Shown: positions 19,795 through 63,905, counted from the stretch's first letter. The stretch is 64,000 bases of DNA from a virus (IMGVR_UViG_3300021399_000004:105339-169338); one strand, 5' to 3'. Notes: generated by a model from the letters alone, not told the origin. Program-made: numbers and translations.

Positions 19795-21090
19795 ATGAAA
19801 AAACCCTATTCATTGGACTTTAGCATAGAACGTGATATCGACCGCGTAACCGCCGTGGCTGACATCCTTGACCAATTACCAAAAACGCCATCCGATACCG
19901 AACTCGAACAGATGGCTTCCTATATTCTTTGGGGCAAAGACGAAGACGGCTATAATGCCGTCCAACGGGGAGAAGTTACAAACGGTAATACCCGCTTCTC
20001 AAGCTACCGCCGCAAAGACGACAAACTTCTCTCCCTTGACGAAATCGTTGATAACCCACTTTCCGACCAACAAGCTCTCGCTTCTCCTCACGTCCGCACC
20101 GTTTATACCAATAAAAAACCCCAAATTGTGCGGCCGCACCGTGGCAAGGGCGGGGTATGGGATCCAGGAGATAGCGAAATTCCTGGCATGACAGAACTTT
20201 GGGAACGTATAGACCGCCTTGATCATTAGCTTGCCGTCCTCGAAGGAAAAGTTCCCCCAGATGAAACCGTCCAAGTTTGGTTGGATAGTTACCGCATTTA
20301 CCAACTTAAACATATTTTAATTGACTTACGGCGTCACCAATACTATCTTAAAGATAGCTACAAGCCAACCCTTCATTTCCTCAATATCGACCACCCAAAA
20401 CCCCAATTTGTTGATTGGGACTCGGATTCCTTTTACTGGATTCCATACGAAGAATGGTCCGCGCGCGTAACCTCTTCCCTCCTCCCTATCTCCCAAAACC
20501 TAGAAGATTATGAAACAAAAGATTGCGGCGGGAAAATTTTTGTTAAATGGATTGTATCTCGTCACCACTTTAATTGGGAAGATCCACTTCATGTGCGCGC
20601 GCTCATCAACAACTACGATGCGCTTTACGATTAGCTTTACGAAAAGCTAGACACAAGCGGCCGCACCCTTATCTTTGACTTTGAACGCTACCGTGAAATG
20701 GCACATTTTAGCGAAATTCGCAATTATTTGCTTGACCTAAAAATCGCCCGCTATTCTTACGCCACCATCTCCCAAATGCTTTTATCTACCTACGGCCTTT
20801 ACTATAATGAAAATCACCTAAGTACAATTTTTGCCAAAGAAATCCCTCAACAATTGGCAGACACGGCAAAGAAACACCGCCTTATCTTGGAAACACCGCC
20901 AGATCAACTAAAAACATGTTTCCGTTGCGGCCGTGCCTTACCCCGTGACCCATTATTCTTTACACGTAACCGCAGCCGCAAAGATAAATTTTCCTCCAAT
21001 TGTAAAGAATGTGAGCGATTGAGGCGTATAAAAGGAGGTTAGCCGCAACATGACAGAAGAAGTAAAGAAGCGACTTTGCATTCGTTGTAA
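19795..21090 (+). CDS. Hypothetical protein, possible DNA-binding regulator (HTH-like segment plus CxxC..CxxC zinc ribbon at the C-terminus); full length needs TAG read-through
   Basis: ATG at 19795 after CAGGAGG. Track pieces 19783..20229, 20281..20634 and 20698..21042 share frame 1 and are joined only by TAG at 20227 and 20632. A third TAG at 21040 is followed by TAA at 21088. Confidence 0.55.
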
Positions 21091-21997
21091 GCAAGAACGC
21101 GACCCTAGTCAATTTTAGTATACGCCTTCTCCATTCTTCCCTCGTCATCGCTCTTTAATTTGCACGCCTTGCTTAGAAGCAATGGTTAAACCAGATAACT
21201 TCAATTAGGTTGACGCACTTTGCCGCTATTTAGACCTGCCCTTCGATTTAAACAAATGGACTGCATTGTATGCTACCCATAAGGAGCATACACTTACCGC
21301 CTATTTTAATACAATTCTTGATACCCACTATCAAGCATTAAGTTGGGAAGATGAGAATGAACGGTGGAAGCTCGCCAAGGAAGAAGGCACCATTGATGAT
21401 GAAATTAAAGCAATTAGTGAAGCAAAAATGCGGCAACTCAAGAAAACATGGTCTGCCGCCTACACTCCAGAAGAACTTATATTCCTTGATACCTTCTATA
21501 ACCAAATTATAACAACCCAAAATGTTTCTACTCCAATTTTATAGCATTACGCGCGCGACCTTTGCGAAATTGAGTTAAGAATTAAAAAGGGCTTGCGCGA
21601 AGGCGTAGATGTAAAGAAAGACATGGATGCCCGCGACAACATTATTAAAATTGCCCACTTCGAGGCAAGTAATGCTAAAAACGCGGCTGACTTTGAATCT
21701 GTCGGAGAGCTAATGGTTTATTATGGAAAGAAGGGGTGGCATCCGCAATGGCATACCGAGCCTAAAGACTCTATTGACTTTATGATGGAAAACATTCAAA
21801 ATTATTTGAAGAGACTGGCTATAAATGAAGGAAACTTTGCTGAACAAGTAGAAGATAAAAAATAGAGATATAATATGACGGAGCGCTTAGAGGCTATTGA
21901 AAATGAGCAAGTTGAATTTGATGAAAGCGCAGGCATTACATATGAAGGGGAAGATGAATTTGCAGCAGAATTAACAGGAGGCACTGCCGATGGATAA
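21050..21997 (+). CDS. Putative terminase small subunit (N-terminal zinc ribbon)
   Basis: SD AAAGGAGG then ATG at 21050. The frame-2 pieces are joined only by TAG at 21116, 21206, 21542 and 21863; TAA at 21995. Overlaps the terL start by 8 nt. Function is inferred from position only. Confidence 0.45.
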
Positions 21998-23765
21998 TTC
22001 AGTACAAGAAACTATCCCAATTGAAAAAGGTGTCGTCCTTAGTAAAGAATTTTTGGATAAAAACGAAAAACTTTTCACTAAATATTTAAACTATTGGCTT
22101 TTATATCCAGACGCCTTCTTAGACGCAATTCAAAAAAAGGATGATGCAAAAAATTTTCACCTACTTCCATATTAGCGTATAGCTTTGCGCGCGTCCCTAC
22201 GTTACAGATACCACTATTGGACTGCAACGCGCGCGGCATCTAAATCTTTTACCGCATATTTAGCAAGCTACGTCCGAGCAACTCTATTACCAAATTCTAC
22301 TATAATGATTGCCTCTGATACGAAAGGCACCGTTATCAAAATTGCGCAAGCAAAATTTGAGGAGATTTTTACACATTGGCCGCTATTACGTAACGAACTC
22401 ACTACTAGGGTAGATGATGGAAAAACAGGACAAAAAACCAGCGGCAACTACTATGAGCTATATTTAAAAAATGGTTCTATGATTTCTGTCGTTTCTAAGG
22501 ATACAAGCCGTGGTTTGCGCGCGAACGCCGCAATTCTTGAAGAGGCCGCTCAAATTTCCGAAGAAGCATATACAGAAGTTCTTTTGCCGCAAATGAACGT
22601 AAAAAGAAGAGAAGTAGATGGCACATTAAATTAGGAAGAGCCATCTAGCCCTCAAATTTTTATAACAACAGCCACTGACCGCACTGCCTTTATGTATAGC
22701 AAACTAATAGAATGTGCAGTAAATATGGTTTTGCGGCCGAAGGAGTACTTTGTCTGGGGTTTAAGTTACGAAGTACCACTACATTATGGCCTTATCGATC
22801 GCGCAACAATAATGGACCAAAGATATTCAAATAATGTAAGCGATGAATCGTTTTTGCGCGAGAATATGAGTGTTTGGACTGGCAACAATAAGGAGGCTTG
22901 GCTCGATTCTAAGCGCCTTGTCAATCGACGTACTTTATTAAAATGTGAGCGAAAAGCGCAAGAGAATCCATAGAATCCAGATACTTTTTATTTACTAAGC
23001 TGTGACGTAGGCCGCTATAATGCGAATACAGCAATAATGGTTTTTAAGGTTTTACCGCGCGAAAACTATTTCCAAAAAAATCTTATCTATACAGAAGTCA
23101 TCCATGGCGCAAATTATATAACCGAATAGGCGCCAAGAATTAAAAAATTAATTGAGTTATATCATCCACGAGAGGTTGTGATCGATGGAAACGGGCCAGG
23201 AATTGGTCTACTCGACGCGATGGCGCTTCCCTCTTTTAATGCTAAAACTGGTGAGCAATTCCCGGCTTATTATGTCTTTAATAATGATCATCACTTGCCG
23301 CCAGAGATGAAAGCAGGAGCAGAAGAGCCAAAGCCAGAATATAGCGCAATTATTTATGACATAAAAGCTGGCGCGACTAATGATGATGAAATCCATTCTA
23401 ATTTCTTTACTCAAATTAATAATGGTACGGTATCATTACTGGCGAATGAGCGCATTGTAAAAGATAAATTATTATAGACAAAAAAGGGATAGCGGATGAG
23501 TCTATATGATAGAAGAGTATTTTTGTTACCCTATGAAATGACTTCTCGTTTAATAGACGAATTAAATAATTTAAAATTAAAGCCAACTGGAGTTTAGAAT
23601 CAATTTAAAATTGAAAGAATCTCACATTCCTTAGAGAAAGACCGCTTTAGCTCTATGGAATATGGTTTATATAGAATTAAACATTATGAAGAGAAAGCAT
23701 ATTAGAAGAAACGCCGCTTTGACGGTAAAAGATTTGCTTTCTTCTCTCCTAAAAAGAGGGGGTGA
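21990..23765 (+). CDS. terL: Terminase large subunit
   Basis: Four track pieces (21990, 22185, 22692, 23178) share frame 3 and are joined only by TAG; TGA at 23763. Motifs: LLPY-[TAG]-R (P-x-Q motif), ATRAASKS (Walker A-like), AAILEEAA (Walker B), SCDVGRY and VVIDGNGPG (nuclease). Confidence 0.85.
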
Positions 23766-23770
23766 TAATC

Positions 23771-25324
23771 TTGAGCCATGATAAAAATTAGTTCCATTAG
23801 TTTCGAGTGGCACTAAAACCTATTATGCGCGCGCCCTTAACTACCCGAGCATATACAACTCGTAATGGCTATAGGATAACTGAGCCCGTAGCCGAAGACT
23901 TTACTATTGAACAAATTGAAGAGATAATTCGATCTGGAAATTTAGAAGCGATTCGTGAACTTTCTAGATATTATTATCGGACAAATAGCGAGTATAAGAA
24001 TAATATAGATTTCCTTGCACACTTATCTCTATATGACTGGGCAATTATCCCATTGTTTTCTGAAGATGAGAAAGGTTCACGTACATAGATTCTAAAAACC
24101 TTTTATAACGCATGTAATTTCATAGAGAAATTAGATTTACCTGTTACTCTTGCGCGAATAACTACTGAATGGTTAATATCCGGAGTATATTATGGTATTT
24201 TAAGGACAACTGGCAATAAAGTTACCATACAAGATTTACCTATTGAGTATTGCCGTAGCCGTTTTAAGGATTTCAATAATTTAAACATTCTCGAATTTAA
24301 TTTACGTTATTTCGAGCAAATTCGTGATGAAGTAATGCGCGAGGAAGCTATATCAACCTTCCCGCAAATCGTTCAGAAAGCATGGAAGTTGTATATTGCA
24401 CATAAGCGCAAAGAAGGTGAATGGGTCGCAATTCCTCCAACTGAAGGAGGGATAAGTTTTAGTTTTGTTAATGACCCGATTCCTGCACTTATTGCCGCGT
24501 TACCAGAACTAAAAAAGTTAGACGATGCAACTAAACGAGAAGGCAAACGTGATGAAAATGAGCTATATAAATTATTAATTTAGCGCATGCCTATTGATAG
24601 CAATGGAGAGTTAGTATTTTAGCTAGATGAGGTCGCTGAAATCCATTCTTCAGTTGCTGAAATGTTGGCAGATACTGACACTGTTGATGTTTTGACCACT
24701 TTTGGTGAGACAAGTCTAGAAAGTTTACAAGATTCTTCTGCCGCAACGTAGTCTAATGATCGTATGGCAAAATATAAAACTAATGCTTATGGTGCATTAG
24801 GGCGTGGAGAAATTTTATTTAATGCAACTAATAGCACTTCTTTAGGATTATAGATTAAAAAAGATGAAGCACTAATACGAGCATATTTAGACGTGTACGA
24901 AGCCTTTATTAGATTTTACCTTAATGACAATTTTATTAGAAAAGGAGTTACCTTTTCTTTCTAGATTTTGCCAACCACTGTATTTAACCGTAATGAAATA
25001 CAGACTAGCTATTTCCGTGGAGCACAGTATGGTTATTCTAAAATGCTTGCTGGTGTTTCCATGGGAGTATCTTAGATGGAGCAATTAAGTTTGATGCACC
25101 TAGAGAATGAATTTTTGGAAATGTCTGCAAAGATGGTTCCTCTTCAATCTTCATATACTACTTCTGGCACGGCAGTATCTGAAGAAGAAAAAACTCAATC
25201 TTCGGTGAAAAAAACATCAACTACATAGACAATAAATGACATAACTAATACAGGGGGACGTCCTGAGCTTCCTGACGATCAAAAATCGGAAAAAACTCAG
25301 GCTAATATTGAAGCTATTTAGTAA
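23771..25324 (+). CDS. Portal protein (putative)
   Basis: TTG at 23771, 8 nt after AGAGGGGG (GTG at 23807 is an alternative start). I read frame 2 through every gap and found only TAG interruptions. It ends TAG-TAA at 25319-25324. Lies directly after terL. Confidence 0.65.
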
Positions 25325-25338
25325 GGGGGTGAAGAAAA

Positions 25339-26556
25339 ATGGAAAAGAAAATTCCGGTATATTTTGATGGAGCTATTCTTTCTTCTCCTCTTGAATAGAT
25401 TACCCCAAATATTGGGCGGGCAAAAGTTAGAGTATTTACAAAATATGGAAATCGCAATGGTTCTTATATAACCGACGCAGTAGCTGAATAGCTTATAAAA
25501 AGTGCAATTAACGCGCCAGTCATCGGGTTCTTTGATCCTAGCACTCAGTAGTGGGCATCACATACGGGCCCAACATTAGCGAGTGCCTATGGCTTTATTG
25601 AGTCATTTGTGGGTTGGGAGCCATATGAGGACACAGATGGCGTAAGCCGTGACTATGCAGTTTTCACTACTGTATTATTTACTAAATATTTTGATGAAGC
25701 TAATAAAATTATTGGTCAAAATCAAAGTATGGAGTTAGATATCAACACCATTACTGGTGATTGGGCAGATATTGATGGCCAAGAATATTTTGTATATACT
25801 ACGGCAGAGATTCTAGGATGCTGTGTTATTGGTAATCACGAACCGTGTTTCTCTGTTTCGACTTTCTTTGCCCTGAACGATCAAGAATATAAAACATAGT
25901 ATGATAAATTTTCTGCCTTATGTGCTTCTATGGCAGAAGAGTTGAAAAATAACATGCTAAAAGGAGGGGAAGCGACAATGGACGAGCTTGAAAAGACCAC
26001 TCCCGTAGAAGAGCAAAATGACGTGGAGCCTAGCGTGGAATATGAGGCTCCTGTTGATACAGATAAAGTTGATGATGAGCCTTCTGTGGAAGAGGAAAAA
26101 GATGAAGTAAATAATTTTGAGGTCGCTCTGAATGAATTGCAGGCTAAGTTTGATGAACTTACTGCTAATTATCAAACTCTAGAAAATAATTATAATGAAG
26201 CGATTAATCGTATTAATGAGTTAGAAACAAATAATGCTAATGAAGTAAATACGCTTAATCAGACAATTTCTGATCTCCGTGCGGCAGTAGCTACTTATGA
26301 GCAGAAGCAAAATGAGCTAGACGCGAGCCGCAAGGAAATGCTAATAGAAAAATATGAAAAAATAATTAACGACGCAGAAGAAATTAATAATATTAAAGCG
26401 TCTTCTAGTGACTTTTCATATGAAGAATTGGAGAGCAAATTGGCGATAGCTTTTGCAAATCAAGCTATTAATGAAACCAATGAACAAAAGATCCCGCTAC
26501 CTGATCCTCAGGTATCTCAATTTGCTTTATTCATGAAAAAATATAAGAAGAATTAA
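25339..26556 (+). CDS. Prohead protease/scaffold-like protein (putative fusion)
   Basis: ATG at 25339 after AAGGGGG. Frame 1 is joined by TAGs through 25609..25899 and 25930..26556. The C-terminal half is acidic coiled coil, which looks like a scaffold. Lies between portal and capsid. Confidence 0.5.
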
Positions 26557-26569
26557 GGAGGAAACTATT

Positions 26570-27184
26570 ATGGGTATGAACAGGTTTCCATTGACCACTA
26601 GCGACAGTTATTCTAGTGTATATCGTCATGGAGAAAAGTTATATGCTACTTTAGAGCTAAATCAGGTAGCTTTCCCTAAGACCGGCATGGTTGTTTCTCA
26701 GGTCCCTCTAGGCAGTGCCTTTACTGAGGCTGCTCCTTGTGAGAACGGAATGTGGGTCGTGGCTGATAAGGCCAAGGGCGTAATTGAGGCTCCCGCTGCT
26801 GTCGGCGATAAGCCTATTGGTATTGTTTACACTACTGAGAAGGAATATGATAATTATCATTATGGCCTTCAGACCTTTGGTCGCAAGATTGCTGGCGACT
26901 ACCCTCGTGTTGGTTTGCTTGGCGTAGGCGATACTGTAACCACAAATTGCTTACAGTATAACACCGATAATTTCGCTAACGACGCTGCTTTAGATACTTA
27001 TCTAAAGGGTGATCTAACTGCTGCTGCCACTGCTGCTTATGTAGTAATAAAGGCTGGTTCTGCAATTCCTGAAATTGTTAAGGCTCTACCGCAGAATTAT
27101 GCTGGCGCTTATGGCAGAGTTGTAAAATATTACACCGTGCCGAACGGTGCTCCTGGTGTAAAATACCAGATGATAAGAGTATAA
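26570..27184 (+). CDS. Hypothetical head protein (decoration/auxiliary?), TAG-free
   Basis: SD AAGGAGG then ATG. 204 aa. Immediately upstream of the major capsid gene. Confidence 0.55.
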   Translation: MGMNRFPLTTSDSYSSVYRHGEKLYATLELNQVAFPKTGMVVSQVPLGSAFTEAAPCENGMWVVADKAKGVIEAPAAVGDKPIGIVYTTEKEYDNYHYGLQTFGRKIAGDYPRVGLLGVGDTVTTNCLQYNTDNFANDAALDTYLKGDLTAAATAAYVVIKAGSAIPEIVKALPQNYAGAYGRVVKYYTVPNGAPGVKYQMIRV

Positions 27185-27199
27185 TAGGAGGTGCGAACT

Positions 27200-28267
27200 A
27201 TGGATAATTTAAGTATTTTAATGAATGGTGTATTCGGCCGCAAGGTTCCCGCAGAGTTCGCTGCCGCCGATTATGATTATGAAGCTGCTCTACATGATGA
27301 GCTAGTAAAGCTTCTATGCGATGATAAGGGCAAGTTTAATCGTTATAAGTTTGAGAAGAACAAGTATGACTTGTTTGCCCTATTGACTGAGAATCTAGAT
27401 GAGGTTCTCCCTCAGAGTCTAAGCTCTGCCTTAGATATGTTTACTGAGGTTATTCGTTTCCCTCAGGGTTCTCGTCCTGAGTTTGTTGTAAAGCGTGGTA
27501 AGCAACGCGGCAAGCAGTTTGTAACTCGTGCTACCGAGTCTGGTAACTATGAGACCTTCAGACTAGACCGCGATCGCTTTGATGTATATATTCAGGCTAT
27601 TGGCGGCGCTGGCTATGTAGACTTTGAGCGCTATCTAGATGGTCTAGAGAGTCTAACTGACATTTATGAAGTTATTACCGAGGGCATGGTTGACCGTATT
27701 TTCGAGATGGTTATGGAAGCTCTAATGAGCACTTGGAAGCTAGTTCCTACTGCTAACAAGATTGCCAGCAACCAGTTCGACCCAACCGCCATGGTAAAGC
27801 TTTGCAATGTTGTGGCTGCTTATGGTGTGCCTACTATCTATTGCTCTCCTCAGTTCGCTGCTGAGATGACCAATGCGATTGTATATAACAATACCACCAA
27901 GATTTCTGATCAGGATATGGTGGATGTGCGCGAGCGCGGCTACATTGGTAAGTTCCATGGCGTGAATGTAGTATTGCTACCTCAGTCCTTTAAGGATGAG
28001 ACCAATTCTGAGCTAGTGATGAACCCCGCTTTGGCTTTCGTTATCCCAAGCGGCCGCGAGAAGCTAGTTCGTCTTGCTTTCGAGGGCAATTCTTATTTCC
28101 GTGAGTGGGATGACCATGAGGGTGATAACTCTATTACTCTACAAGCTTACACTAAGGTTGGTGTTGGTATTGTTGGCACTCCTAATTATTGGGGTCTATA
28201 TTACAATAAGGCTCTAAATAATGCTGATACAGCATGGGGCACTTATAATACTACCAATTTAATTTAA
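27200..28267 (+). CDS. Major capsid protein (putative, HK97-fold class)
   Basis: ATG at 27200, 8 nt after TAGGAGG (the track uses GTG at 27191). 355 aa and TAG-free. A strong hairpin (28276..28302) follows. Supported by position in the head module. Confidence 0.7.
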   Translation: MDNLSILMNGVFGRKVPAEFAAADYDYEAALHDELVKLLCDDKGKFNRYKFEKNKYDLFALLTENLDEVLPQSLSSALDMFTEVIRFPQGSRPEFVVKRGKQRGKQFVTRATESGNYETFRLDRDRFDVYIQAIGGAGYVDFERYLDGLESLTDIYEVITEGMVDRIFEMVMEALMSTWKLVPTANKIASNQFDPTAMVKLCNVVAAYGVPTIYCSPQFAAEMTNAIVYNNTTKISDQDMVDVRERGYIGKFHGVNVVLLPQSFKDETNSELVMNPALAFVIPSGREKLVRLAFEGNSYFREWDDHEGDNSITLQAYTKVGVGIVGTPNYWGLYYNKALNNADTAWGTYNTTNLI

Positions 28268-28275
28268 TATAATAA

Positions 28276-28302
28276 GGGGATGGATGGCATCCATCCATCC
28301 CC
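28276..28302 (+). terminator. Strong hairpin after the major capsid gene
   Basis: GGGGATGGATGG-cat-CCATCCATCCCC then AATTTT. Probably a partial terminator or attenuator. Confidence 0.6.
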
Positions 28303-28331
28303 AATTTTGAGGTAAAAGGAGGATTATTATT

Positions 28332-28769
28332 ATGAAAGACATTAGCATTAAGAATGTTAGTACAGCAACAGTTGTAATAACATTGCCTGATTTGCACTTC
28401 CGCCGCGAATTAACTCCTGGCAGAAGCGCTACGATACCTGAAGAGATTTATAATGAACTACGATTTGATCCTGGCACCGCAGGACTATTAGATGATCATT
28501 ATTTAGTTATTAGCGGCATTGACGATGAAGGTGTAAAGATTACAACAGATGCAGTTGATAGCACCGAAATTAGTCGCATGTTTGATGAGCAAGATATAAC
28601 TGCTTTTGCTAAATTTATTCCTAACGCCGCTCAGGCTGAACGTGATACTGTAATTCGTCTTGCTATTGATAAGGGCGTAACTGCTCCTGCATTTGTAAGC
28701 CTTATTAAAAAGTATTGCGGTACAGATATTATTCAGGCAATTAATTTTAAGCATCTTGCTGAGGAGTAA
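28332..28769 (+). CDS. Hypothetical head-module protein (145 aa), TAG-free
   Basis: SD AAAGGAGG then ATG at 28332; TAA stop. Confidence 0.6.
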   Translation: MKDISIKNVSTATVVITLPDLHFRRELTPGRSATIPEEIYNELRFDPGTAGLLDDHYLVISGIDDEGVKITTDAVDSTEISRMFDEQDITAFAKFIPNAAQAERDTVIRLAIDKGVTAPAFVSLIKKYCGTDIIQAINFKHLAEE

Positions 28770-28771
28770 TA

Positions 28772-29272
28772 ATGGCTACTTCTTTTTTGAAAGTGTATGA
28801 TGCCTTTTTGGCTCGTATTACTGCTGATGAATGGACATTGGAAGAAGAGTTAGCCATTGTTGAGCGGGATTGGCAAGAGCTTTTGAAAATGGCCATCTTC
28901 AGATTTAAATATCCAAGGGTTGGGCTTGAAGTAGAAGAAGTAACAGTTGATGATAATAATCCGCCAACCTTGGCTTCTGAGACAATTAGTGCCTATGAAT
29001 TTGTAAATGATTTAACAAATGATGAAATTTAGCTCTTAGCTTTATATATGAAACATGAATGGGTAAAACGTTGTATTGCTAGTTGGGAAAATATTAGATA
29101 GCTTTATGCTGATAAAGATTTTAGCCAGGCAAATCATTTAGCAAAGCTAAACGATTTGCAAGAGGCTGTCGCTTTAGAAGTGCATAAGGCAGAAGGAATA
29201 TATGATCGTTCACGAGAAAAGCGTCCAGCAAATTTGTTTAAAAAGTTGGCAGGTAAGAAGAATGTCGTATGA
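28772..29272 (+). CDS. Head-tail connector/adaptor candidate
   Basis: ATG at 28772. Frame 2 continues through TAG at 29030 and 29099 to TGA at 29270. Function inferred from position only. Confidence 0.45.
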
Positions 29273-29537
29273 TGTCACTTTTGATGGATATAAGAATAAA
29301 TTAAAAGGACGTTTATATGGATTACTCTGTGAAAAAGAAAAAGACGGAGAATGGGAAAAATTCTTAGATGCAATTATTATTGAAATAATGGGCATGAAAG
29401 GTGACTCTATTAATTGGTGGCCTTTAATAGGAAAATTACATTCTCTACGTTTCTTATCATATGAGTATTTTAGAAAGACAATTTTTGAATGTATGAATTT
29501 AATTGGTGGACTAGAGGTGCCAAATGAGTTATCTTAA
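29262..29537 (+). CDS. Hypothetical neck/tail-module protein
   Basis: ATG at 29262; the alternative ATG at 29202 used by the track has a 3-nt SD spacing. TAA at 29535. TAG-free. Confidence 0.45.
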   Translation: MSYDVTFDGYKNKLKGRLYGLLCEKEKDGEWEKFLDAIIIEIMGMKGDSINWWPLIGKLHSLRFLSYEYFRKTIFECMNLIGGLEVPNELS

Positions 29538-30786: not shown

Positions 30787-30797
30787 GGTGATTTTAA

Positions 30798-32067: not shown

Positions 32068-32083
32068 AAAGGGGGTAACTCTT

Positions 32084-33082: not shown

Positions 33083-33114
33083 GAGGGCATATGAAAATAT
33101 GCCCTCTTTTTTTT
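33083..33114 (+). terminator. Intrinsic terminator after the tail tube gene
   Basis: GAGGGCATAT-gaaa-ATATGCCCTC followed by T8. Confidence 0.75.
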
Positions 33115-33126
33115 ATAGGTGATTTT

Positions 33127-50922: not shown

Positions 50923-50935
50923 AGGAGGAGTTAAG

Positions 50936-52591: not shown

Positions 52592-52610
52592 GAAAAAGGA
52601 GATGAAAGGA

Positions 52611-55600
52611 ATGAATATAGAGGAAAGAAAATATGAATTGTCTGTATGGACAATTTAGGATGAATACATTGTTACTTTGACTAAAGGGGCTGGTCAGGTA
52701 CAAAAGGCAGAATTTAAGAATAATGTTGATGGTACTATGAGCCTTAATTTTGAGATTCCTATGTATATTAGGAGAAATGGAGAACGAATTGAAAACCCCA
52801 TTTGGTGCAATACAATTAATGGTGTAATAATGGCAGACCTCAAAAAGATTAAATTAATTTTTAATAAACATACTGACGATGAAGCAATCTATGAATTTAT
52901 TATTACAAAAGTAACTGAATCACATGAAAAGGATATTTTAACCTGCAAAGTTGAATGTGAAGGATTAGCTTTCCATGAGTTAGGTAAGCGAGGATATAAA
53001 ATTTCTTTAACAACAGATGATTATATTAATGATGTAAATGATTGGTTTCATAATGTACCAAAAGAAGAATAGACAATTTTATTAGCCAATCCTGACGCCG
53101 ATTCTGTTACATTAACTTTTTCTTCTTTAGTTGCTAGTAAAAGATATTATAGCGTTGGGCAGTCTCCTACAACTGGGTAGGTTATTGATCCAGAACCAGT
53201 AGATGGTGAAACTTATCATCGTATTATAAAATTAACTGATTTGAAACCGGGCACTCAAATTAATATTAACAGTGAAGATGGCACACTTGCTCGGCCATGG
53301 ATTTTAATAGATCAAACTGATAATAGCATGATTACTTGCGCGCAAAGCAAACGCGCATATAATGAGACAATAGTAGTTCCTAGTGAATATGTTGTTAATA
53401 ATATTAAGAAAATAATTACAAAAGCAATTTTAATTGTTTAGTTTAGAGAAAATGTTGGCGGCATGACAATAAATGATGCTTTTGTTACAAAAATGATTAA
53501 TCAGAGCTATGGGCCACTTCCGCAGGCAAATATTGAATACTGGTTAAATAAATTTTTATCTCCATATCCAAGTTATGGTGTTAATTTATTATAGCCTAAT
53601 GTATCTTATGATAACATAACGGCTGGGATGAGTGTGCCAATCAATCCAAGAAAATGGTACTATACAATAAGAATGAATTGGGGCGGATTTTCAGAATATA
53701 CTGTTAGATAGCCTAATAAAATTTATGAAGAAGAATATGTTGGCTCATGGGAATACGACAGTGAGAATGAAGCAATTTATGCTAATGCAATGGTCGATAA
53801 GCAAGAAAAATATCGTTTAGTTGATCTACAAGAAAGCAATATTTATAACCTAACGCAAGACCTTGCAAAAACTTTTGGCGTGTTTTGCCGCTATGAATAT
53901 TTATATGATTAGCAATATCATATTATTGGGCGCTTAATTGTATTTTATAATAGTTTTTTTGAAGAACAGAATGGTTATTTAGATATAACTTATCCATATT
54001 CTACAGATACAATTACTCGTGAAATGGACGGCAGCGAAATAACTACTAAATTATTTGTAAAGCCAGTAAGTTTAGAAGAAAATGAAGAAGTAGATATAAT
54101 GAATTTAGATACTAATAAAACTTTAGAAGATTATATTCTTAACTTTAATTATTTAAAAACAATTGATTCGCTTACGGAAGAATAGAGACAAGGCATAGAT
54201 AATTTTGAAGTTTAGATGAGACAATTGAATAAAGAAATTATTAAATATAGTGAAATGGAAATTAGCTTTAATGAGCCATTGGTTGATCTTGAAGCAAAAC
54301 GAACAATAATTGAAAATTCTATCAATGAGAATACAAAAGCATTAGAAGAAATAGCACGTTCGCGCGCGGCATTAACATAGACAGGATACTTAACTGTTGG
54401 TTATGGTTTTGTCCTTTCTGAAGAAGATGACCCCCATTTTGCAGAACGCGGTAAATCTAACAAAATGCCTGAATTAACAATTATTACTGCAATGGAAGGG
54501 CAAGCAGAATTTGATGATTCGGCCTTTTAGGATGATGCAGTTGTTAGGTTTTCTTCGTCCTCAGTTACTGGGAAAAAAGAATATTATTCAGTTGGCGAAA
54601 GCCCAGTGGCTGGTCAAGAGATTACTAATGTTACACAAGATGCAGATCATACTCATTATATTATTAAGATGACTAAACTAAAGCCTGGTGAATAGGTTAT
54701 AGTAAATAGCCAAGAGGCTGGAACTGCTCGGCCATGGATTTTATTAGATTAGAGTAATAAATTAATAGCGTGTTCATAGGGTCTTGTATCTAATTATGAA
54801 GTTATTACAGTGCCAGATAAATATGTTGTAAACTCTACTACAAATTCTATAACAGGAGCAACTTTAATTATTCAGTATTAGGAGATAGAAAATGGTATCC
54901 CTAAAGATTCTGCTGAAATAATAAAAAAGGTCAACGTTGCAGTATATCCTTATAGATGGGAACTTAAGTTAAAAAATAAAGGAATACTATCTGATGTAAG
55001 CGTTTCGACATTATAGAGTTTAAATAATACAATGTTTAGCAATGAAGCTCTGAGCATAAAGCCAGTTGTTAAATTAGGGGTATATTATAACTATGATTCT
55101 AGAACAAAATTATTGGAAGATGAAATATAGAATTTTTAGATTGAATATGACGATTATGGGAATCCAATTCGTTTATATAATATAATTTTACCATATTCAC
55201 ATGCTGTATTGGATGCAAATGGAAATAATGTTTTAGATTCTGACGGAAATCCAGTATATGAGCCGCTAGATTTACATAAAAAAGTTTATCTTACATATAC
55301 TTATTGCCCTTCTCTTTACTTCGAGAAAGCTCGTATTATGCTAGAAAACAAGCAAGCAAAAGATATTAATGAGTTATCCGTTACTGAAGCTACTTTATCT
55401 AAACTAAAAAGTATAATTGATACCGTAGTAAAATATAAGGAAAATAGATTATCTCAGAAAGAAAGTTTGCTTGAAGATTTTGAGCATTTAATGGGGCCGG
55501 CGTTAAGAGAAGGATATTGGATGCCAGAAGATTATAAAGATTATGGTGACAGATATAATACAATCATGCCTATTAGTACTTATTATTATGATAATTGGGT

Positions 55601-58600
55601 ATATAATAATCAAGGTGAGCCAGAACGAATAACTGATATAAATGGTTTCCCGTTATAGGCATCTACTCCATATTTAAGTTTTATTTGGGATGAGCGGCCT
55701 TATGATCAAGAACAACTATCATATTATGAGGTTGGCGTACAATAGGATATTGAGTATTATCCATGTTATAATTTAAATCATCTGAATACTAAAATATATG
55801 ATTTTTGCAAAGAGCATGTCAAAGATTTAACTTTTAGTTTTAATACTCCTGGCGCAGATCAAACTGGTCAGGGCGCGCAAAGAACAAGTTTTAATATAGG
55901 CTCTTAGCTTGAATTTGGTTTTGTAAAAGCAACTTATCTAAATGAAGGATTTAGCTTTAAAATAGATAGCAATGGGTATGTCTTTAAAAATGGACATCCA
56001 GTTGTTTTAAATAGCTCAGGCAAAGAAGCATCTATGGGATATGATAGTGAAGGGAATCCTACTAAAAATATTAATTATGAGGCGGCGCCGTGCCTAATTT
56101 TAACAGGCGCAAAGGACGTCCTGCCGCCAGAAAAGAAATTCATTGATTATTTATAGATGCAAAAAGCATTGCCTGTATTAACAAGTACAAGTTTTTATAT
56201 GAAATGGCTTGAAGCTGTGCGCGCAGATCCTGTCAATGGCGTGCCACAAAATGAGAAAGATGATAACGGAAATGTCTATAAGACATATTACCTAGCATAT
56301 ACAAATAAAACGAATGTTAATGATACAGAAAGTGTAGATGTTAGTACATTAGCAAACGGTAGCGAGTATTATAGAGTTGCTACTGAAATTCATAGTGTAA
56401 CTACTACAAATGCAGGGCAAGTAGATAAAATTGAACTATTCTTTTTGAATAAAATGATCCATAAGTTCAAAAAGGTTAGCAATGATAGGATCGATTTTGT
56501 TTCGCGCGATGATGACGACAATTTAGAGACTTATGCGCCATATAAAGGATACATGTATCCAGATATTCTATTTAATAAAAAGCCGATGCTGGTTTATCCG
56601 CGCTTTAAAATTGATTCACTAAAATTAAAGAATACAGAAGATTGGCTACGCTTATCAATAGATGGAGTAGTACGAGAAACTGAAGATCATTAGTTCGTTC
56701 ATTAGTTAGCGAATTTCAGTGATTATACTGTCTTTACTCGTGGAGGACTAAAAGGAACAGTTGAGGATTTTGAAGATATAACCATTAATGAAAATACAAC
56801 AATGGATGATATTGATGATTGGTATGAAAAAACAGCATACTATATTACTTTAAAGCCCTCTGTTATTTTTGAAGCTGGCATTTAGCATGATGATAGTAGT
56901 GATCCTTAGATCCCAACAACCTTAAAACCAGTAGCCATTTCTTATGTTTTATCTAATGCTGATTTACATATTTATTTGGATGGGTTACAGGTCTCGAAAG
57001 AGAACGCTTTCCCAAAGGTTTCATATACAGTGACTCCGCGTTTTATTGATAAAACTGTGGCAATTAAGTCTTATCAGTGGCTAAATCGTATTGTACATAT
57101 TAATGATAATGATTTAAAATTTAAAAATGTTTTAGGTTATATATCTGAAATTACTTTAAACTTAAATAATCCGTCAGAGGATAGCTTTGAAGTTAAAAAT
57201 TATAAAACCAAATTTGAAGATTTATTCTCTACTATTATAGCATAGTCATAGGAAATGAAGAAGCGCGAGCATTCTTTTGAAACTGCCGCTTCTGCCTTTG
57301 CGGGAGATGGCACTTTAAATCCTGATTCTATGGGCAGCCTTAATGGAATTAATATAAGCTATAATGGAGGTCGATTAAGTTTAACTGAAAGAAATGGATT
57401 AATGGGAGAGAGCGATGCTGGCGCGGTAAGTTTTTAGTATAATGGAATTTTTATTGCAGATACTAAAAATAATGATGGCTGGGATTGGAGATAGGCAATA
57501 GGGCCAAAAGGAATTAGCGCCGAATAGATTACTCGCGGCCAGTTAGATTTATCAAAATTATCTATTTATTCTGGCGATAATATTTATATGCAAATGAATA
57601 ATGACGGTTTGTTTGCCTATAAAAATTATATGATTGACTCAAATAGATTAAATGGTGATAACATTGCGGCTAATTTTTCTAGATATACTACAACGCCTGA
57701 ATCTACATATGTTACTTTAGATGAACTAATCCGAAGCAATAATACAGAATCTTTATATAAGCAGTATGTACATTTTAGCGAGAATGGATTATTCTTAACT
57801 GCAGAAGAAGGCGCCATGATATTAAAAAGTAAGACTTAGGATGGCTCTCGACAAGAGAAAATTAGTTTTAAGTCTGAAGGAGAAAATATAGTTACTTCTA
57901 AAAAGTATTATGATTTGGGGTCGGCCGCGGTAGTAGGCGGTAGTCTGGGAGAGCAATAGACCGGTACTAAAAATCATACGATTATTACTGTTAGTGGATT
58001 AAAGCCAGGGCAGTAGATTGTTGTTAAGTCATATGATGGACCTAATGCAAGGCCATGGGTTCTAGTTGATCAAAATTAGAACATTATTTAGAAGTGTGCA
58101 AGCAGGAAAACTCCAGAGAACGGCGAATATATAGTGGTTCCTGAAACAGTAACAACTGCTACATTGATTGGACAATATTGCGACTATACCAGTACTGGTG
58201 GATACTCAATTGAAGACTGCTATATTTAGTTAGCGAGTGGAAATGAATATAAGTATGAAAGGTAGAATAAAGATGTTAACCGAGTAGAAATTAGTTGGGA
58301 TGGTTTGGTTTTAAGAAATTGGGCTGGAGAAACAACCTTTTATGCTAGTCCTGATACAGGTAATTTGTATATTTCTGGTACTTTAAATGGAAATACATTA
58401 CGCATTGCTGATGAAGCGGATTGGGAGTTAGGTAATGAAGGTAGGACTTTAGACGCTTATTTAGGGGCGAATTTTCCAACAAAAGATGAAGTAGAGCATA
58501 CATTAGGCGAGTTAAAACATGATACTGATTAGGCTCTTACTAATTTAAATACTACTATAACTAAGTTAGAAACTACTCTAAAAGAAGATAATGCTACTTT

Positions 58601-61600
58601 AAATACTAAGATAGAAGAAATTAATACCACTTATGGACGAAGTTCTTATCGTGGGCCATTACATCCTACTAATTTTAAAATTGGAGATATTTGGATTAAG
58701 ACAGAAATATTAGAAGATGACACTAATCCTTATAACTTAAAAGAAGAACCGGAAAATAGTGGTATTTATATTATTAATCCTAATGCAGAAAATAATTACG
58801 CTAACGCAAAAATTTTAGGGCAGTATACTGCGGTAAAAACATTTAATAAGACTACAGATAATTATCCTACAGGCATTTCAAGTGATACTGATTGGATAAG
58901 CAATGATAGCGGTGCATATTGGGTTGAAACATATGACGCCACTTTAACTAATATTACTGGAGCTGCAATTAATATCGACCAAGAAAATCAAACAATAGAT
59001 GTGCAAGCAAAAACAAAAATTTCTTTATTATCCCCAGGAGATATTAAAATAGTTGGTAATAATGTTAAGATCATTGGCAGTGATGTTAAGGATAGCAATA
59101 ATCCGGGTACTGTAACGATTGGTGGAACAAATATTAACCTTGCGGCTACTAGTGAATTAAATATTTTAAGTAACAGTGTGGATGCTATTAATAATATTTC
59201 TTTAAATTATGAGGGTATTAAATTATATTCAGATGTTGGTATTGATTTTACCGCATCTAGTGTAAAATATTGGTTTAAAGACATAACAGGCGAAAAGGCA
59301 TATTATAGCATTCCTACCACCCCTGGAGAATCTATTACTTATAATACTAATGCAACATATGAGCATCGTATTATTGTTATTGAAAATGTAACGCCTGGAT
59401 AGAAATTTATTATTAATGCAGCAGATGGCGATACCGCGCGGCCATGGGCACTCGTAGATACTAGTGGGAATGGTTTAAAAGTTATTGTCGCGGCCGCCAA
59501 TAAAAAAGCGAATGCTGTTGTTGTAGAGGTGCCTAGTAGTTATACAGCAGATGGAACGACGGTACAAGTAACTAGCGCGACACTCATCGTTTAGCATCGT
59601 ACTACCTCGACAGATATTTTATTGAATAAGGCATATGTAATAGATAATAATAATTTGAATACTATATCTCTTGGTAAAAATGGTTTATGGATGGGTAGCA
59701 GCAAAGAAATTAACTTGTTTTCTAATCGCCTGGGAGAGACCTCTGGAGGAGCAACCGTTTCTATTAATAGTGACCGTATATTATTGGGATTAGCTAATTC
59801 TAATAATGCTAGCACGATTAAACTAACACCAGAAGAAATTTTATTAGGCACTGGTTCTGTATCATTAATTGAAACAACTACTGGCACTGGAGTAGATATT
59901 AAAAATAATTCAATTATTTTAGCCACTGAATCCGAAAAAGAGAATGAAACTATTCGTAGCGGTATTATATTGGATAACAAAGGCTTTGCAACTTTTAGTG
60001 CAAAGAAAAATACATTATAGGGAAATGATTCTAATGTATTTTCTGATGGAAGTTATGTGAAAGTATATCATAATACATTTGAGATTGGTAGCTTAGCTAA
60101 TATTAATATTAATAGTAATAATTTTAAATTATACACAAATACTGATTCTACTAATCCTGTTACTAGGTTTGCGTTAGGGGTTGGATTAAATAATATTAAT
60201 GGGCTAGATTAGATAAGTGATGAGGCTGCTCGTTATACAGCATATATTGACGCAATGAATAGTGGCAGCAAAGTCGGTCTTGTTTTTAATGGTTCTACGT
60301 TATCAATTTGCGGCAACATTTACGCTCAAAGTGGTTATTTCAGTGGCCATGTGGAAGCTAGTAGCGGAACGTTCCATGGAGCAATTATTTCTACTAAAGG
60401 ATATTATCCTGATAAGGTTAATGATCCTACTAAATATTATTAGCCTTTCTTTAAAGCAGACTCAAATGATTTAGGTATGTACATAAATAGCGCAGATCAT
60501 TCTGAAGCATTAGATACGAATGTAAGAGATAAGTCACAAACTTGCAAAATTGAAATAAATAATTCTTCAGTAACAGCGAATCAATATGCTACTGAGAAAT
60601 TATTATGGTTTGAAAATGGTGAATTGCATGTTAAGGGAAGTATTACAGCTACTAGTTTTACTTTAAATGATAATACTTTATCACAAATTATTAACCCTGA
60701 AGAATATTAGTACTCATATTATGCATAGGAATAGCCTATTACATCTATTGGACAAAATTGGAGATGGTCTTCAACTATTGCAGAAGCTGAAGAATCTATA
60801 TCCAGGCCGTATTATCTCTGTACAAAACAAATTGGTTATAAAAATAATGGGGCCACAGAATTATTAACGACTTATGCTATTACATATGTTCCTGCTGCTG
60901 GATAGCAAGGTCCTCGTGGTGCTGATGGACAAGATGGCGCCGATGGACAAGATGGGCAAGATGGACAAGATGGCGTGTATGTTACTTCTATTACACCTTT
61001 ATATTTTTTAAAAATTGACAATAAAACAATATCGCCAAACCCTCCTGCAAGCTCTACCCCATCCGCTTATAATTAGGCAGCTACAGTGATTACTGACAGT
61101 AGGAATGCGCCTGGTATATGGGTAACTATTGTCCCAGATATTTATTATACTGTTCAGCAAGAGGGTGAAGACCCTTAGACGGCTATATATGATGGTAACT
61201 ATTATCGTTGTGAATAGTATGTCTGGTCTGATGATGTCTCAAGCGATCAAACACAACGACATATTACTTATTCGCAAGTATATATAGACTATGGGCTAAC
61301 CACTGCTGTATATACAGCTACCAGCGCTTCTGAATAGGCTACCTAGGCAAGTAATATTACTGAAGCTTTTACTAGCAATGGGTTACATTCTAATCTTAGC
61401 TGGGGAGGTCATAATTGGGGTGTTGCATTAACGTCTGCTACAAATTTATTGATTGGCGCAAATGGTATCGCAGACCCTAGTGGTTCTAGTAATGCTTAGC
61501 CAGGCGATTGGGGTATTTGGATAGCAAAGAGTGCGGCTTATAGTGATGGCGCTGCCATGGTATTAAATAGTAGCGGCATCGCATTAAATGCAGCTAATAT

Positions 61601-62744
61601 TATTTTAACAGCAACGGACAACAATGTTTCTACGCAAGTACTTGCTCTCAATAGTACCGGCTAGAATAAAGGCATTGTTTTAGGTAGTAGTGGTAATATT
61701 TCAATGTCCGGAGGAAGTATTTCTATGACTGGAGGGAACATTACTGCTACTGGTGGGAATCTTAGTCTTTATACTCAAGCTAGAGATGGTGATAGTAATC
61801 CAAAAGGAGCTTTTACATTAAGAACTTCCTGGGAAGAAAATGGTACTGATGTTGAAGGCGTAAGATTTGATATGACTAATACTAGTTCTTATATTACATT
61901 AACTGACAAAGGCTTAAATATAGCTAGTAAAGAGGATACTAATTATTATGCACATTTAGGGAGTTCTGATATTACATTCCACGCAGGAAATAATAATTCT
62001 ATTGTATTAAATGATAGTGGAATCTCATTAACTGGAGCAGATATTAATTTTAATGTAAGTTCGAGCGGTATTGCTCTTAATGGGGCAAATATTTGGGTTA
62101 ATGGGAAAAAAGTATGGAATGCTAGTACAATTAGGATTTTACGCCAAGGACAAACTAAGGAAGCCTTAGTAGCAGAAGTATATGATGATGATGATGTAGA
62201 TGACTGGGTTTTAATTACACCAAATTATGCCACTACCCTCTTATATAATTTTACGCCCAATAATCCTGGAGGGATAATGGAGGTTAATGGAACTAAAAGT
62301 GGTACTTGGACTAGTGCTTCCAATGCAGTTATTGCAGATACAAGTACTCCATTTAAATATACAATCTCTTTTAATTATAAAGTAACCTATAAGACGAGAG
62401 CTGGAGGAAATTATATCAAAATAGCTATTTCTTCTTCTAATGGTTCAAGCTCTCGAACACTTACACTGGGTGATTCGAATGAAATTTTATTAGGTGATTT
62501 TTCTAGTCCAACAAGTTTTTCATATACTTATGTCACTAGTAATGCTTTAGAAAATTTATTGGCTCAAGGGTATTCTTTAGGTGATATTACCTTAACTAAC
62601 CGAACAGGTACGGCAACATATAATATCACAGATTTTTCTTTGGCTATAGAGTCTAGTTTTAATTCTTCGTCTATGACCGCAGATTGCGCTGTTACTTATT
62701 ACACTCCAGGATGGAAAAAATTATATACCACTTCTTAGACATAA
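52611..62744 (+). CDS. Tail-associated protein (Tal-like N-terminus) fused to a fibre-like region, 3,377 aa
   Basis: ATG at 52611. All 12 frame-3 track ORFs from 52677 to 62738 belong to it, and I read every gap and found TAG only. It ends TAG-ACA-TAA at 62736-62744. The N-terminus (YELSVW..LNFEIP..NPIW..FIITKV) resembles siphophage Tal / minor structural protein. Contains four repeated modules and a collagen-like run. Confidence 0.75.
53121..53441 (+). repeat. Tail-protein repeat module R1 (about 107 aa)
   Basis: K.YYSVG..G....H.I..L.LKPG.QI...D...ARPWILIDQ...V.P..YV....ILIVQ. Alignable with R2-R4. Confidence 0.8.
54552..54875 (+). repeat. Tail-protein repeat module R2
   Basis: KEYYSVGESPVAGQEI...HYIIKMTKLKPGE[TAG]VIV..AGTARPWILLD[TAG]...TLIIQ. 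Confidence 0.8.
57873..58175 (+). repeat. Tail-protein repeat module R3
   Basis: KKYYDLGS...HTIITVSGLKPGQ[TAG]IVV..GPNARPWVLVDQN...TLIGQ. Confidence 0.75.
59262..59594 (+). repeat. Tail-protein repeat module R4
   Basis: KAYYSIPT...HRIIVIENVTPG[TAG]KFII..GDTARPWALVD...TLIV[TAG]. Confidence 0.75.
60900..60978 (+). repeat. Collagen-like G-X-Y run (9 triplets) inside the tail protein
   Basis: G[TAG]Q GPR GAD GQD GAD GQD GQD GQD GVY. Confidence 0.8.
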
Positions 62745-62783
62745 AAAATAGGGCCGACTCTTTTGAGTCGGCCCTTTATTTTT
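62745..62783. terminator. Bidirectional intrinsic terminator between convergent genes
   Basis: AAAAAATA-GGGCCGACTC-tttt-GAGTCGGCCC-TTTATTTTT. Confidence 0.8.
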
Positions 62784-63165
62784 ATGCCTTTAAATAAGGC
62801 ATTAGCGCAGTTAGCTCGTCAGGAGTAAAATCTATATTCCCTATATCGTCCATACTAACTGGTTCTACGTTTAAATTAATTTTATCTGTAATTAATGTAG
62901 TAATCTCTTGTTCAAATTGACGCTGCTTTTCAGGCTCAAATTGAATGTGTCCTTGCTCATTTTGAACAATATTACCATCATCGTCATACTTGCAATACTT
63001 ACGAATTAATTCATTCCTCTAAGAATCGAATAGTTCGCATTCATTTTTTACTTCTCTATTGATTCGAGCAATTTGAAACGCCACCTTGGCGGGGAAGCTT
63101 TTAGAAGAAACATTCTTTAAAGCATCAACGCTGCCAAGCATTTCATTAATACTAATTTCAATCAT
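62782..63165 (-). CDS. Hypothetical protein (127 aa)
   Basis: ATG at 63165 overlaps the TGA of the upstream gene (ATGA). One in-frame TAG (plus-strand cta at 63019-63021). TAA at 62782. Confidence 0.55.
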
Positions 63166-63905
63166 TCTATATCTTCTCCCCATGTTGATTTATTATTTCT
63201 TAATAAATGTACAAAATATTTTCCAATACAAATTGCATCCGCTTCATCTTGCGTGCAATCCTATTTATACCAAACTTTTACTTGTGCCTGCGCCAATTTC
63301 TTTTTGTTTTCGCGGCCGGCGCCAGTTCCTACATCGCAGTATTTTCGCCAAGCAGTTGAATAAACTAAATCATGCTTAATTCCTGCTTCATATATAGCAT
63401 CGAGTAGAACGCCTTGTAAATTAGCCAATGTTCTATAAGTCTCAACTTGATAATTATTATGGCCAAAACTTTGTAACTGAATATTTTCTATTCCTATGAA
63501 GTCTGGTTGGCTTTCTTGTATCATTGCAATGAGCCATTTCTTCACTTGATTAATTCTTACCTCAGATGGCAACTCTTTATCTTCTTTATGAGTACCATAA
63601 TTAATTAGTTCGCCATTATCAAAGATTGAGTATCCTGTGATACCAGTAGCAGCATCTAAAGCAAGGATTCTTTCTACTCCTTCTTGTTTTACTGGTATCT
63701 TATTCTTTTTTATTTTATAAGGATCTCCTGCCATACATATCTAGCAAATAGGATGTTTACGCCATTGGTCATATGTCTGTACTTGATAATGCCCTTTCGG
63801 GCACTCCATCTCTAATTCTGTTTTTAAATTTTTATATTCAGTACTAATCAATCTCCATCCTTCTTGATCAAGATGATTAGCTACTGAATATATATTAATT
63901 GGCAT
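63162..63905 (-). CDS. RuvC-like Holliday junction resolvase with N-terminal zinc-ribbon extension
   Basis: ILALDAATGITGY, FIGIENIQ and DEADAICIG are RuvC-type motifs. The track ORF 63261..63734 is only the middle part. In-frame TAGs at 63741-63743 and 63261-63263 join CPKGH..CQIC upstream and DEADAICIG downstream. TGA at 63162. Confidence 0.75.

Follow-up and report, generated by a model that had tools for sequence, protein, structure and literature searches.

Reassignment of the stop codon TAG to glutamine (genetic code 15) is a known phenomenon (Borges 2021/22, Peters 2022, Babkin 2023), and the first-pass annotation of the sequence studied here rightly noted that it has already been described for gut phages, which limits the novelty of a further case. 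Here we characterize IMGVR_UViG_3300021399_000004:105339-169338, a 64,000-nucleotide stretch of viral DNA (the window) that represents 64 kb of a phage of about 140-150 kb from a sheep-rumen metagenome. Sequence comparisons indicate that TAG in most late genes of this phage is a sense codon read as glutamine. We are nearly certain that it is an SPbeta-like tailed phage of the sheep rumen, about 140-150 kb in size, that uses code 15, with TAG as glutamine and TAA and TGA as stops. It belongs to an SPbeta-like lineage of the rumen in which recoded phages occur alongside standard-code ones; no near-identical phage was found in GenBank.

The nearest described phage is phAss-1 (proposed 'Phassvirus' group; Babkin et al. 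2023, PMC10607447, OQ749652), filed at NCBI in the 'Caudoviricetes code 15 clade'. Like the window phage, phAss-1 is large (136 kb), has a very long tape measure protein, carries in-frame TAG in its terminase, portal, tape measure and fibre genes, places TAG on conserved glutamine positions and has no dedicated aminoacyl-tRNA synthetase. Its terminase, which GenBank annotates as three code-11 fragments, is related to that of the window at 32% identity. The two phages nevertheless share no nucleotide similarity, and phAss-1 comes from the human gut rather than the rumen. Its tape measure protein has 3149 residues against 5608 in the window phage, and it possesses 36 tRNA genes (cluster at 96-114 kb), with three tRNA-Sup-CTA reported, whereas no tRNA was found in 124 kb of the window phage.

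The general features of the window phage have all been described for the TAG-recoded clades surveyed by Borges et al. (bioRxiv 10.1101/2021.08.26.457843): recoding that centres on structural and lysis genes and varies among replication genes, very close standard-code relatives and TAA-rich stops. These clades also resemble the window phage in their low GC content, and a suppressor tRNA is not always detectable in them. Among them, the 'Agate' clade comprises large genomes, cattle samples and members with codes 11, 15 and 4, and shares with the window phage a cattle or rumen habitat and a range of 130-190 kb. Size, habitat and shared study accessions lead us to guess that the window phage belongs to Agate. 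Unlike that clade with its code 4 members, however, the 31 relatives include no member with a TGA-recoded terminase gene.

For crAss-like phages, the reading of TAG as glutamine is confirmed by metaproteomics (PMC9523058). The crAss-like and Lak code-15 phages share with the window phage both the TAG-to-glutamine change and the division of the genome into early genes that are code-neutral and late ones that are recoded. They are, however, unrelated lineages that infect Bacteroidota, and some encode RF2 plus suppressor tRNAs.

The structural module of the window phage follows SPbeta. It contains the Pfam families YonG, YonD, YonB, YomW, YomV and YomU in SPbeta order, as part of a colinear SPbeta-like set of YonG, YonF, YonE, YonD, YonB, YomW, YomV and YomU; a YorF family protein is also present. 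By tblastn, the terminase finds SPbeta-like Bacillus phages and Brevibacillus phage Sundance ('YonF/YonG-like'), and it is 30-35% identical to the terminases of SPbeta-like Bacillus, Geobacillus and Enterococcus phages. The cultured SPbeta-like relatives differ in having terminase genes that are annotated as intact and full-length and so show no TAG recoding, at protein identities of about 30-35%.

In-frame TAG in the late arm

On the plus strand of the late arm, the interval from 19795 to 62744 looks shattered under the standard code (code 11), with only 45% of it in open reading frames (ORFs) of at least 100 codons. Read with TAG as a sense codon, the same interval resolves into 18 abutting genes (99.5% coding), all terminating in TAA or TGA. 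The late arm as a whole holds 289 in-frame TAG and no in-frame TAA or TGA over 14,476 codons. The frame at 34096-50922, which encodes the tape measure protein, contains 178 TAG, 0 TGA and no TAA other than the terminal one; the first-pass annotation had counted about 180 TAG here by hand. The other two frames of this interval hold 276 and 644 TAA and TGA codons, and the in-frame absence is therefore not a matter of chance. A second long frame, at 52611-62744, had been described as interrupted by TAG only, and the recount agrees, with 56 TAG and a single, terminal TAA. In-frame TAG had also been assigned to the terL (large terminase), portal and RuvC genes, where 8, 9 and 2 are counted. For the genes previously called 'Dit' and 'Tal', the in-frame TAG are real (5 in g16 and 56 in the giant tail protein), whereas the names reflect gene position and find no family support. 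Across the phage as a whole, TAG terminates none of about 130 called genes, which all end in TAA or TGA, in keeping with the earlier statement that these two codons still act as stops. For the left arm, treating TGA or TAA as a sense codon brought no improvement that pointed to real genes.

Homology runs through the TAG positions. PHROG matches cross them in the portal protein (residues 31-494 of 499), g2 (5-273), g12 (5-253) and the RuvC domain (80-234), and in tblastn comparisons with eight TAG-free relatives no stop is met at any TAG position of the window. Two outcomes had been named in advance as evidence against recoding, namely TAA or TGA inside the joined frames on computed translation and homology that ends at TAG; the frames contain neither codon internally, and both the PHROG matches and the eight relatives align across TAG. 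These comparisons show that TAG is a sense codon in the window phage.

Three data sets yielded this sequence in separate, independent assemblies. The window matches without a difference ENA contig ERZ28612961 SHIW14-1_SAMN02144230 scaffold_147 (129,144 bp; 0 mismatches over the 21 kb compared) and is likewise identical to ERZ12302813 NODE_103 (140,511 bp; 0 mismatches over the 10.7 kb compared) and to a 7.3 kb JGI contig (L007). The stored gene calls of the ENA contigs already read TAG as glutamine and include a 5608-residue product matching PF10145, so the reassignment had been recognised by an automatic pipeline for exactly this sequence.

One could suppose instead that TAG is an ordinary stop and that the late arm consists of decayed or fragmented genes, or is an assembly artefact. 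Its shattered appearance under code 11 would fit such a view, as would the JGI calls on the identical 7.3 kb, which are code-11 fragments. The frame statistics given above already refute the ordinary-stop reading, and family matches and relatives align across every TAG. Many relatives show the same pattern at different positions, and the three data sets agree on the sequence. We consider this explanation practically untenable.

Amino acid assignment of TAG

Within the window, four paralogous modules of the giant tail protein align TAG with CAA or CAG. The eleven coordinates listed for these alignments in the first-pass annotation (53178, 54615, 53256, 54693, 58014, 53313, 58071, 54750, 53439, 59592 and 54873) proved exact in both codon and peptide context. 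Its placement of the terL TAG at 22173 on a conserved glutamine is likewise sound: the context reads LLPY-TAG-R, and the position is CAA in the relative L002 and glutamine in 120 of 120 homologues, a partly circular set. The catalytic motif of RuvC does lie downstream of a TAG, reading WYK-TAG-DCTQDEADAICIG.

The 120 full-length terminase homologues (71-79% identity) all have glutamine at two of the eight terL TAG columns. Some of them had been translated with TAG as glutamine (P0119 has 8 such positions), and this partly circular evidence is not relied on; for this reason the glutamine test was repeated with relatives whose DNA lacks in-frame TAG. One of these is L002, a contig of 183.8 kb whose terminase shows 75% identity; it has no in-frame TAG in 14 colinear genes and uses TAG as a true terminator of one gene. 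Among the 47 window TAG positions aligned to L002, 22 fall on glutamine (17 CAA, 5 CAG), followed by lysine (5), alanine (4), glutamate (3) and serine (3).

Extended to eight TAG-free relatives and the 65 TAG positions that they cover, the comparison gives glutamine in 121 of 245 aligned cells (49%), against a background of 3.5%. The ordinary CAA and CAG glutamines of the window are conserved at 52% in the same relatives, while at TAG columns every amino acid other than glutamine stays below 9% (serine, 4%). Under the observed substitution table, the log-likelihood is -499 for glutamine, -782 for glutamate as next best and -829 for lysine, which served as a proxy for pyrrolysine-like chemistry; glutamine leads every other amino acid by more than 280 units. 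TAG thus appears to be read as glutamine in the window phage.

A different sense assignment, to pyrrolysine, lysine, glutamate, serine, tyrosine, leucine or tryptophan, is very improbable. Lysine and glutamate are indeed the next commonest partners at TAG columns. Against this stand the near equality of the glutamine share at TAG columns with the conservation of ordinary glutamines, the gap in log-likelihood, and the partner codons CAA and CAG, one transition from TAG. Pyrrolysine in particular fits poorly with 289 TAG codons spread across most late genes and a preference for glutamine, no pyl family occurs among the Pfam matches, and the window yielded no tRNA.

Distribution of TAG among genes

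In the late arm, TAG makes up 289 of the 730 glutamine-type codons (40%), or 20 per 1000 codons. Four late genes are TAG-free, namely g6, the major capsid gene (YonB), g8 and the tube gene (YomU), and these use mainly CAG for glutamine. The TAG-containing late genes rely on CAA and TAG, and CAG is infrequent in them. The recoded relatives L003, L004 and L143 show this split as well, with the counterparts of the four genes free of TAG, and the TAG-using genes of L143 often have no CAG at all. Because CAG has nearly disappeared where TAG is used and is preferred where TAG is absent, sense TAG probably arose from CAG by a C-to-T change.

The 24 early genes contain no TAG in 2657 codons, a difference from the late arm that is highly significant (Fisher p = 2e-16). 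Their glutamine codons are CAG (58) and CAA (19) and their stops TAA (20) and TGA (4), and they are readable under either code. Outside the window, TAG occurs in the genes of a ResIII helicase, a GIY-YIG nuclease, RecJ, an AAA_24 protein and the endolysin, as well as in those of a 1739-residue fibre and of tail proteins of 683 and 788 residues. The genes of DNA polymerase III alpha (1319 aa), NrdD, DnaB, gyrase A and B and dUTPase are TAG-free. The first-pass annotation had tied TAG use to the AT-rich arm. TAG is indeed present there, but its use is not a simple property of the arm, given the four TAG-free late genes and the TAG-containing genes that lie on both strands beyond the window.

Recoding centres on structural and lysis genes; the exceptions are the capsid and tube genes, which lack TAG, and some replication genes, which contain it. 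The whole genome is consistent with code 15, and two classes of genes can be distinguished in it. The code-neutral class (early genes, capsid, tube, DNA polymerase III alpha, NrdD, DnaB and gyrase) is translatable by an unmodified host cell, and the most abundant virion proteins are in this way kept independent of a suppressor. The TAG-dependent class includes the terminase, portal, tape measure, tail, fibre, endolysin and sigma-like regulator genes together with some replication and repair genes.

This distribution bears on whether the host itself might read TAG as glutamine, in which case the phage would simply match its host and need no switch. Such a host would account for the lack of a suppressor tRNA in 124 kb of the phage. 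Avoidance of TAG in the early genes (0 in 2657 codons, against 20 per 1000 in late genes) would, however, be pointless in it, and close relatives use TAG as a terminator, which places standard-code phages in the same lineage. For the TAG-recoded clades that they surveyed, Borges et al. moreover predict standard-code hosts (Firmicutes, Bacteroidetes). A host with this code is scarcely plausible. The sole hint of a host, and a weak one, is a recoded relative whose metagenome bin bears the label Acutalibacteraceae.

Among the 29 IMG/VR relatives with a terminase identity of 69-79% are TAG-rich (9-16 per 1000 codons), intermediate and TAG-free members, and none is TGA-recoded. In several relatives (L032, L035, L037 and L038), a gap of about 1 kb interrupts the match to the terminase, or the match begins in mid-gene, which TAG and TGA do not explain; this suggests insertion of an intron, intein or homing endonuclease.

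Decoding of TAG and the search for a suppressor tRNA

During infection, TAG would be read by a tRNA with anticodon CUA and glutamine identity. This tRNA would have to out-compete release factor 1 (RF1) almost completely, unless RF1 were disabled at UAG. For the tape measure gene with its 178 TAG, 99% read-through per codon is computed to yield 17% full-length product and 95% to yield 0.01%, and a yield of 10% needs at least 98.7%. Since the full-length yield is low even at 99%, RF1 would have to be nearly fully out-competed or disabled. In the Escherichia coli supE system, a glutamine tRNA with a CUA anticodon reads UAG against RF1, as proposed here. A laboratory suppressor of the supE type, however, reads only a fraction of UAG, whereas 178 in one gene demand near-complete reassignment. 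With late functions dependent on such a switch, virion assembly and lysis may be delayed or gated, as has been proposed for other recoded phages.

Several observations weigh against this picture. The gating idea is weakened by the most abundant virion proteins, which need no suppressor, and by several replication genes, which do. The terms 'early' and 'late' derive from gene content, strand and promoters, and the reading of TAG as glutamine from sequence comparison. Over a contiguous 123.7 kb, which extends 31.8 kb to the left and 27.8 kb to the right of the window, ARAGORN detects no tRNA, out of about 147 kb assembled, and no release factor or aminoacyl-tRNA synthetase was found for the phage. 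At the site of the tRNA(CUA) gene of relatives, the window phage has its endolysin gene and no tRNA. For the window itself, the earlier statement that no suppressor tRNA, RF2 or GlnRS gene is visible holds: ARAGORN detects no tRNA there, and Rfam detects none at the gathering score or at E<=1.

Relatives do carry a candidate suppressor. L071, L100, L112, L122 and L142 share the fibre and lysis module with the window phage at 40-65% identity, and each encodes a tRNA(CUA) that measures 88-93 nt, has an extended variable arm and follows directly on lysis-associated genes (Table 1). The tRNA(CUA) of L071 scores 56 bits against the Rfam tRNA model and has an A1·C72 mismatch, G73 and the long variable arm; the better-conserved TAG columns of L071 also favour glutamine. 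In a set of 33 distinct tRNA(CUA) genes with a long arm, taken from viral contigs, G73 occurs in 25 and the 1:72 pair is weak or mismatched in most; phage tRNA-Gln genes in the same loci show both traits too. By their mismatched 1:72 pair and G73, the long-armed tRNAs of the relatives appear glutamine-like.

The same tRNAs could be taken to favour another amino acid, since the default ARAGORN label for any tRNA with a CUA anticodon is 'Pyl', and serine, leucine and tyrosine tRNAs are marked by a long variable arm. Their mismatched 1:72 pair and G73 argue otherwise, as tRNA-Ser has G1:C72 and tRNA-Leu and tRNA-Tyr have A73.

A pattern scan recovered about 50 long-armed tRNA(CUA) genes in viral contigs from the rumen and the human gut, and in some contigs (L087, L121) a 75-nt and a 91-nt tRNA(CUA) stand side by side. 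In the literature collection searched, no paper describing the long-armed form was found. Just before the tRNA(CUA) of the recoded relative L071, and upstream of a small gene, a match to the Rfam motif cow-rumen-4 RNA (RF02948; 56.8 bits, above the gathering score) lies at 12218-12280. Within the suppressor search, a ResIII helicase scan found nothing and a RuvC scan found one standard-code relative, and the tRNA-Lys seen in some relatives was, when followed up, a lone tRNA-Lys(UUU) only.

Code 15 might also operate without a phage-encoded suppressor, if TAG were read by a tRNA of the host, altered or not, or by an RNA overlooked by tRNA finders. The phage may then encode no tRNA at all and achieve near-complete TAG reassignment by another route, such as an edited or redirected host tRNA, a neutralised RF1, a co-infecting helper phage or an undetected RNA. 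The scan of 123.7 kb without a single tRNA, which includes the tRNA site of the relatives, speaks for this, as does the lack of anything tRNA-like in Rfam searches of the window at E<=1. Precedents exist: of the TAG-recoded genomes studied by Borges et al. (bioRxiv 10.1101/2021.08.26.457843), only 40% yielded a TAG suppressor, and Babkin et al. found suppressors in one of three divergent recoded genomes (PMC10607447). On the other hand, about 24 kb of the assembled genome lies outside the scan, and relatives of 160-190 kb suggest that the assemblies may be incomplete. Relatives that share the fibre and lysis module encode a tRNA(CUA), and 178 TAG in one gene demand very efficient decoding, which a dedicated tRNA would provide more readily. 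We judge the absence of a phage suppressor to be unlikely, although a serious possibility.

Gene content of the late arm

The features of the window and the tRNA genes of the relatives are collected in Table 1. A Shine-Dalgarno sequence precedes the ATG of g1 at 19795, and g1 is also called on the source contig. As the first gene of the late arm, g1 stands behind a perfect host-type promoter and contains 3 TAG. The gene g2 is possibly the small terminase partner. PHROG 15503 matches only residues 14-223 of the terminase and PHROG 24618 only residues 353-585; both seem to be families built from terminase genes that were split by code-11 calling. The portal gene ends in TAG TAA (25319-25324), where the TAG may be a last glutamine or a vestigial stop.

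The glutamine codons of g6 are 0 CAA and 6 CAG. The tape measure protein is 7.2% glutamine. In phage lambda, a tape measure protein corresponds to about 1.5 Å of tail length per residue, which for 5608 residues would give a tail of about 0.84 µm. The gene g16 matches no PHROG or Pfam family, and Pfam searches of g1, g16 and the giant tail protein return nothing except a sub-threshold collagen repeat. The RuvC gene is the first gene of the minus-strand replication module.

Table 1. Features of the window (coordinates counted from its first nucleotide) and tRNA(CUA) genes of relatives (coordinates on their own contigs).
Feature	Coordinates	Strand	Basis and codon content
Early arm, 24 small genes	1080-12362	23 on -; 1080-1583 on +	Source contig gene calls
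Sigma70-type promoter	19739-19768	+	TTGACA, 18 nt spacer, TATAAT, TG extension; 12/12 consensus matches; precedes first TAG-containing gene
g1, 431 aa, sigma-factor-like C-terminal part and zinc ribbon	19795-21090	+	phrog_5767 'sigma factor', E = 1e-14; 3 TAG
g2, YonG-like	21050-21997	+	PF27269 YonG_N; phrog_3314, residues 5-273; 4 TAG
Large terminase, YonF-like, 591 aa	21990-23765	+	8 TAG; 22173 and 23127 on invariant Gln columns
Portal, 499 aa	23825-25324	+	phrog_2739 'portal protein', E = 2e-67, residues 31-494; 9 TAG
g5, YonD-like head protein	25339-26556	+	PF27290 YonD_N; 4 TAG
TAG-free block: g6, capsid, g8	26570-28769	+	0 TAG; Gln mostly CAG
Major capsid, YonB family	27200-28267	+	PF27364 YonB; CAA 2, CAG 8
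g9, g9b, g10, g11 (YomW), g12 (YomV), head-tail joining and tail	28772-32067	+	17 TAG in total
Tail tube, YomU family	32084-33067	+	PF27173 YomU_Tube; 0 TAG
g14, virion structural protein	33091-34038	+	phrog_2729; 3 TAG
Tape measure, 5608 aa	34096-50922	+	PF10145 PhageMin_Tail; 178 TAG, 179 CAA, 48 CAG
g16, 551 aa, distal-tail-protein position	50936-52591	+	Position only; 5 TAG
Giant tail protein, 3377 aa, four paralogous modules	52611-62744	+	Contig gene call also 3377 aa; 56 TAG
RuvC-like Holliday junction resolvase, N-terminal zinc finger	63162-63905	-	phrog_827 and phrog_159, residues 80-234; 2 TAG
tRNA(CUA), L071	12785-12874		
tRNA(CUA), L100	13850-13937		
tRNA(CUA), L112	5384-5472		
tRNA(CUA), L122	5318-5410		
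tRNA(CUA), L142	2447-2539		

Early region and GC-rich island

The early genes run opposite to the late arm, each with its own near-consensus promoter preceded by a 20-bp palindrome. Promoters and strand support the early/late assignment, without proving it. The perfect palindrome, TTAGATGTTYRAACATCTAA, occurs in 34 copies in the window (971-15944), where 0.01 would be expected by chance, and about four more lie up to 3.2 kb to the left of the window (L008, L048). Nearly all copies stand 7-40 bp upstream of a near-consensus minus-strand sigma70-type promoter. Downstream of the promoter follow a small GTTCC..GGAAC hairpin, then a Shine-Dalgarno sequence and then a single small gene of the early set. 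This order indicates that each early gene has its own operator-plus-promoter cassette. The palindrome is analogous to the SPBRE element of SPbeta, which is bound by the master repressor MrpR, but it has a different sequence and is present at 34 rather than about ten sites. It is absent from the loci of the relatives.

Between 14700 and 17800 lies a gene-free stretch of 3 kb with 21% GC. It contains three tandem palindrome-plus-strong-promoter units (about 15353-15901) that drive no ORF, and a (TATATG)n microsatellite at 16800-17200. Rfam 'miRNA' matches at 16.8-17.1 kb are artefacts of this microsatellite. The stretch may serve as a replication origin, as a regulatory hub or in the production of small RNAs.

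Adjacent to it, on the minus strand at 17800-19560, is a GC-rich island of 58-66% GC in a phage of 32-43% GC. It holds four small ORFs of 67, 72, 103 and 218 aa, each with a strong Shine-Dalgarno sequence and, after the ORF, a GGGGAGGGC...GCCCTCCCC hairpin. Searches of PHROGs, Pfam, PADLOC, PDB sequences and GenBank phages returned no match for the island proteins (17.8-19.5 kb). An assembly chimera was considered and ruled out, the island being present in two separate assemblies (SAMN02144230, SAMN02144231). Relatives carry different GC-rich patches at the same position, which suggests that the site is a hot spot for foreign cargo.

Implications for the lineage

The standard code leaves more than half of the 43 kb late region unreadable, with its genes recorded as fragments. 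Translation with code 15 restores a complete SPbeta-like virion module, including the 5608-residue tape measure protein. The phage is in this respect a well-documented addition to a known phenomenon, and its recoded and standard-code relatives are close enough for codon-by-codon comparison. More speculatively, should g1 govern late transcription, it would itself need the suppressor in order to be translated, which would add a second layer of gating.

The open question of the field is how the cell is made to read TAG nearly perfectly, and this phage bears on it only if a suppressor is truly absent. Should the rest of the genome also prove to lack one, a lineage that mixes codes at 70-79% terminase identity would be a good place to find the mechanism.

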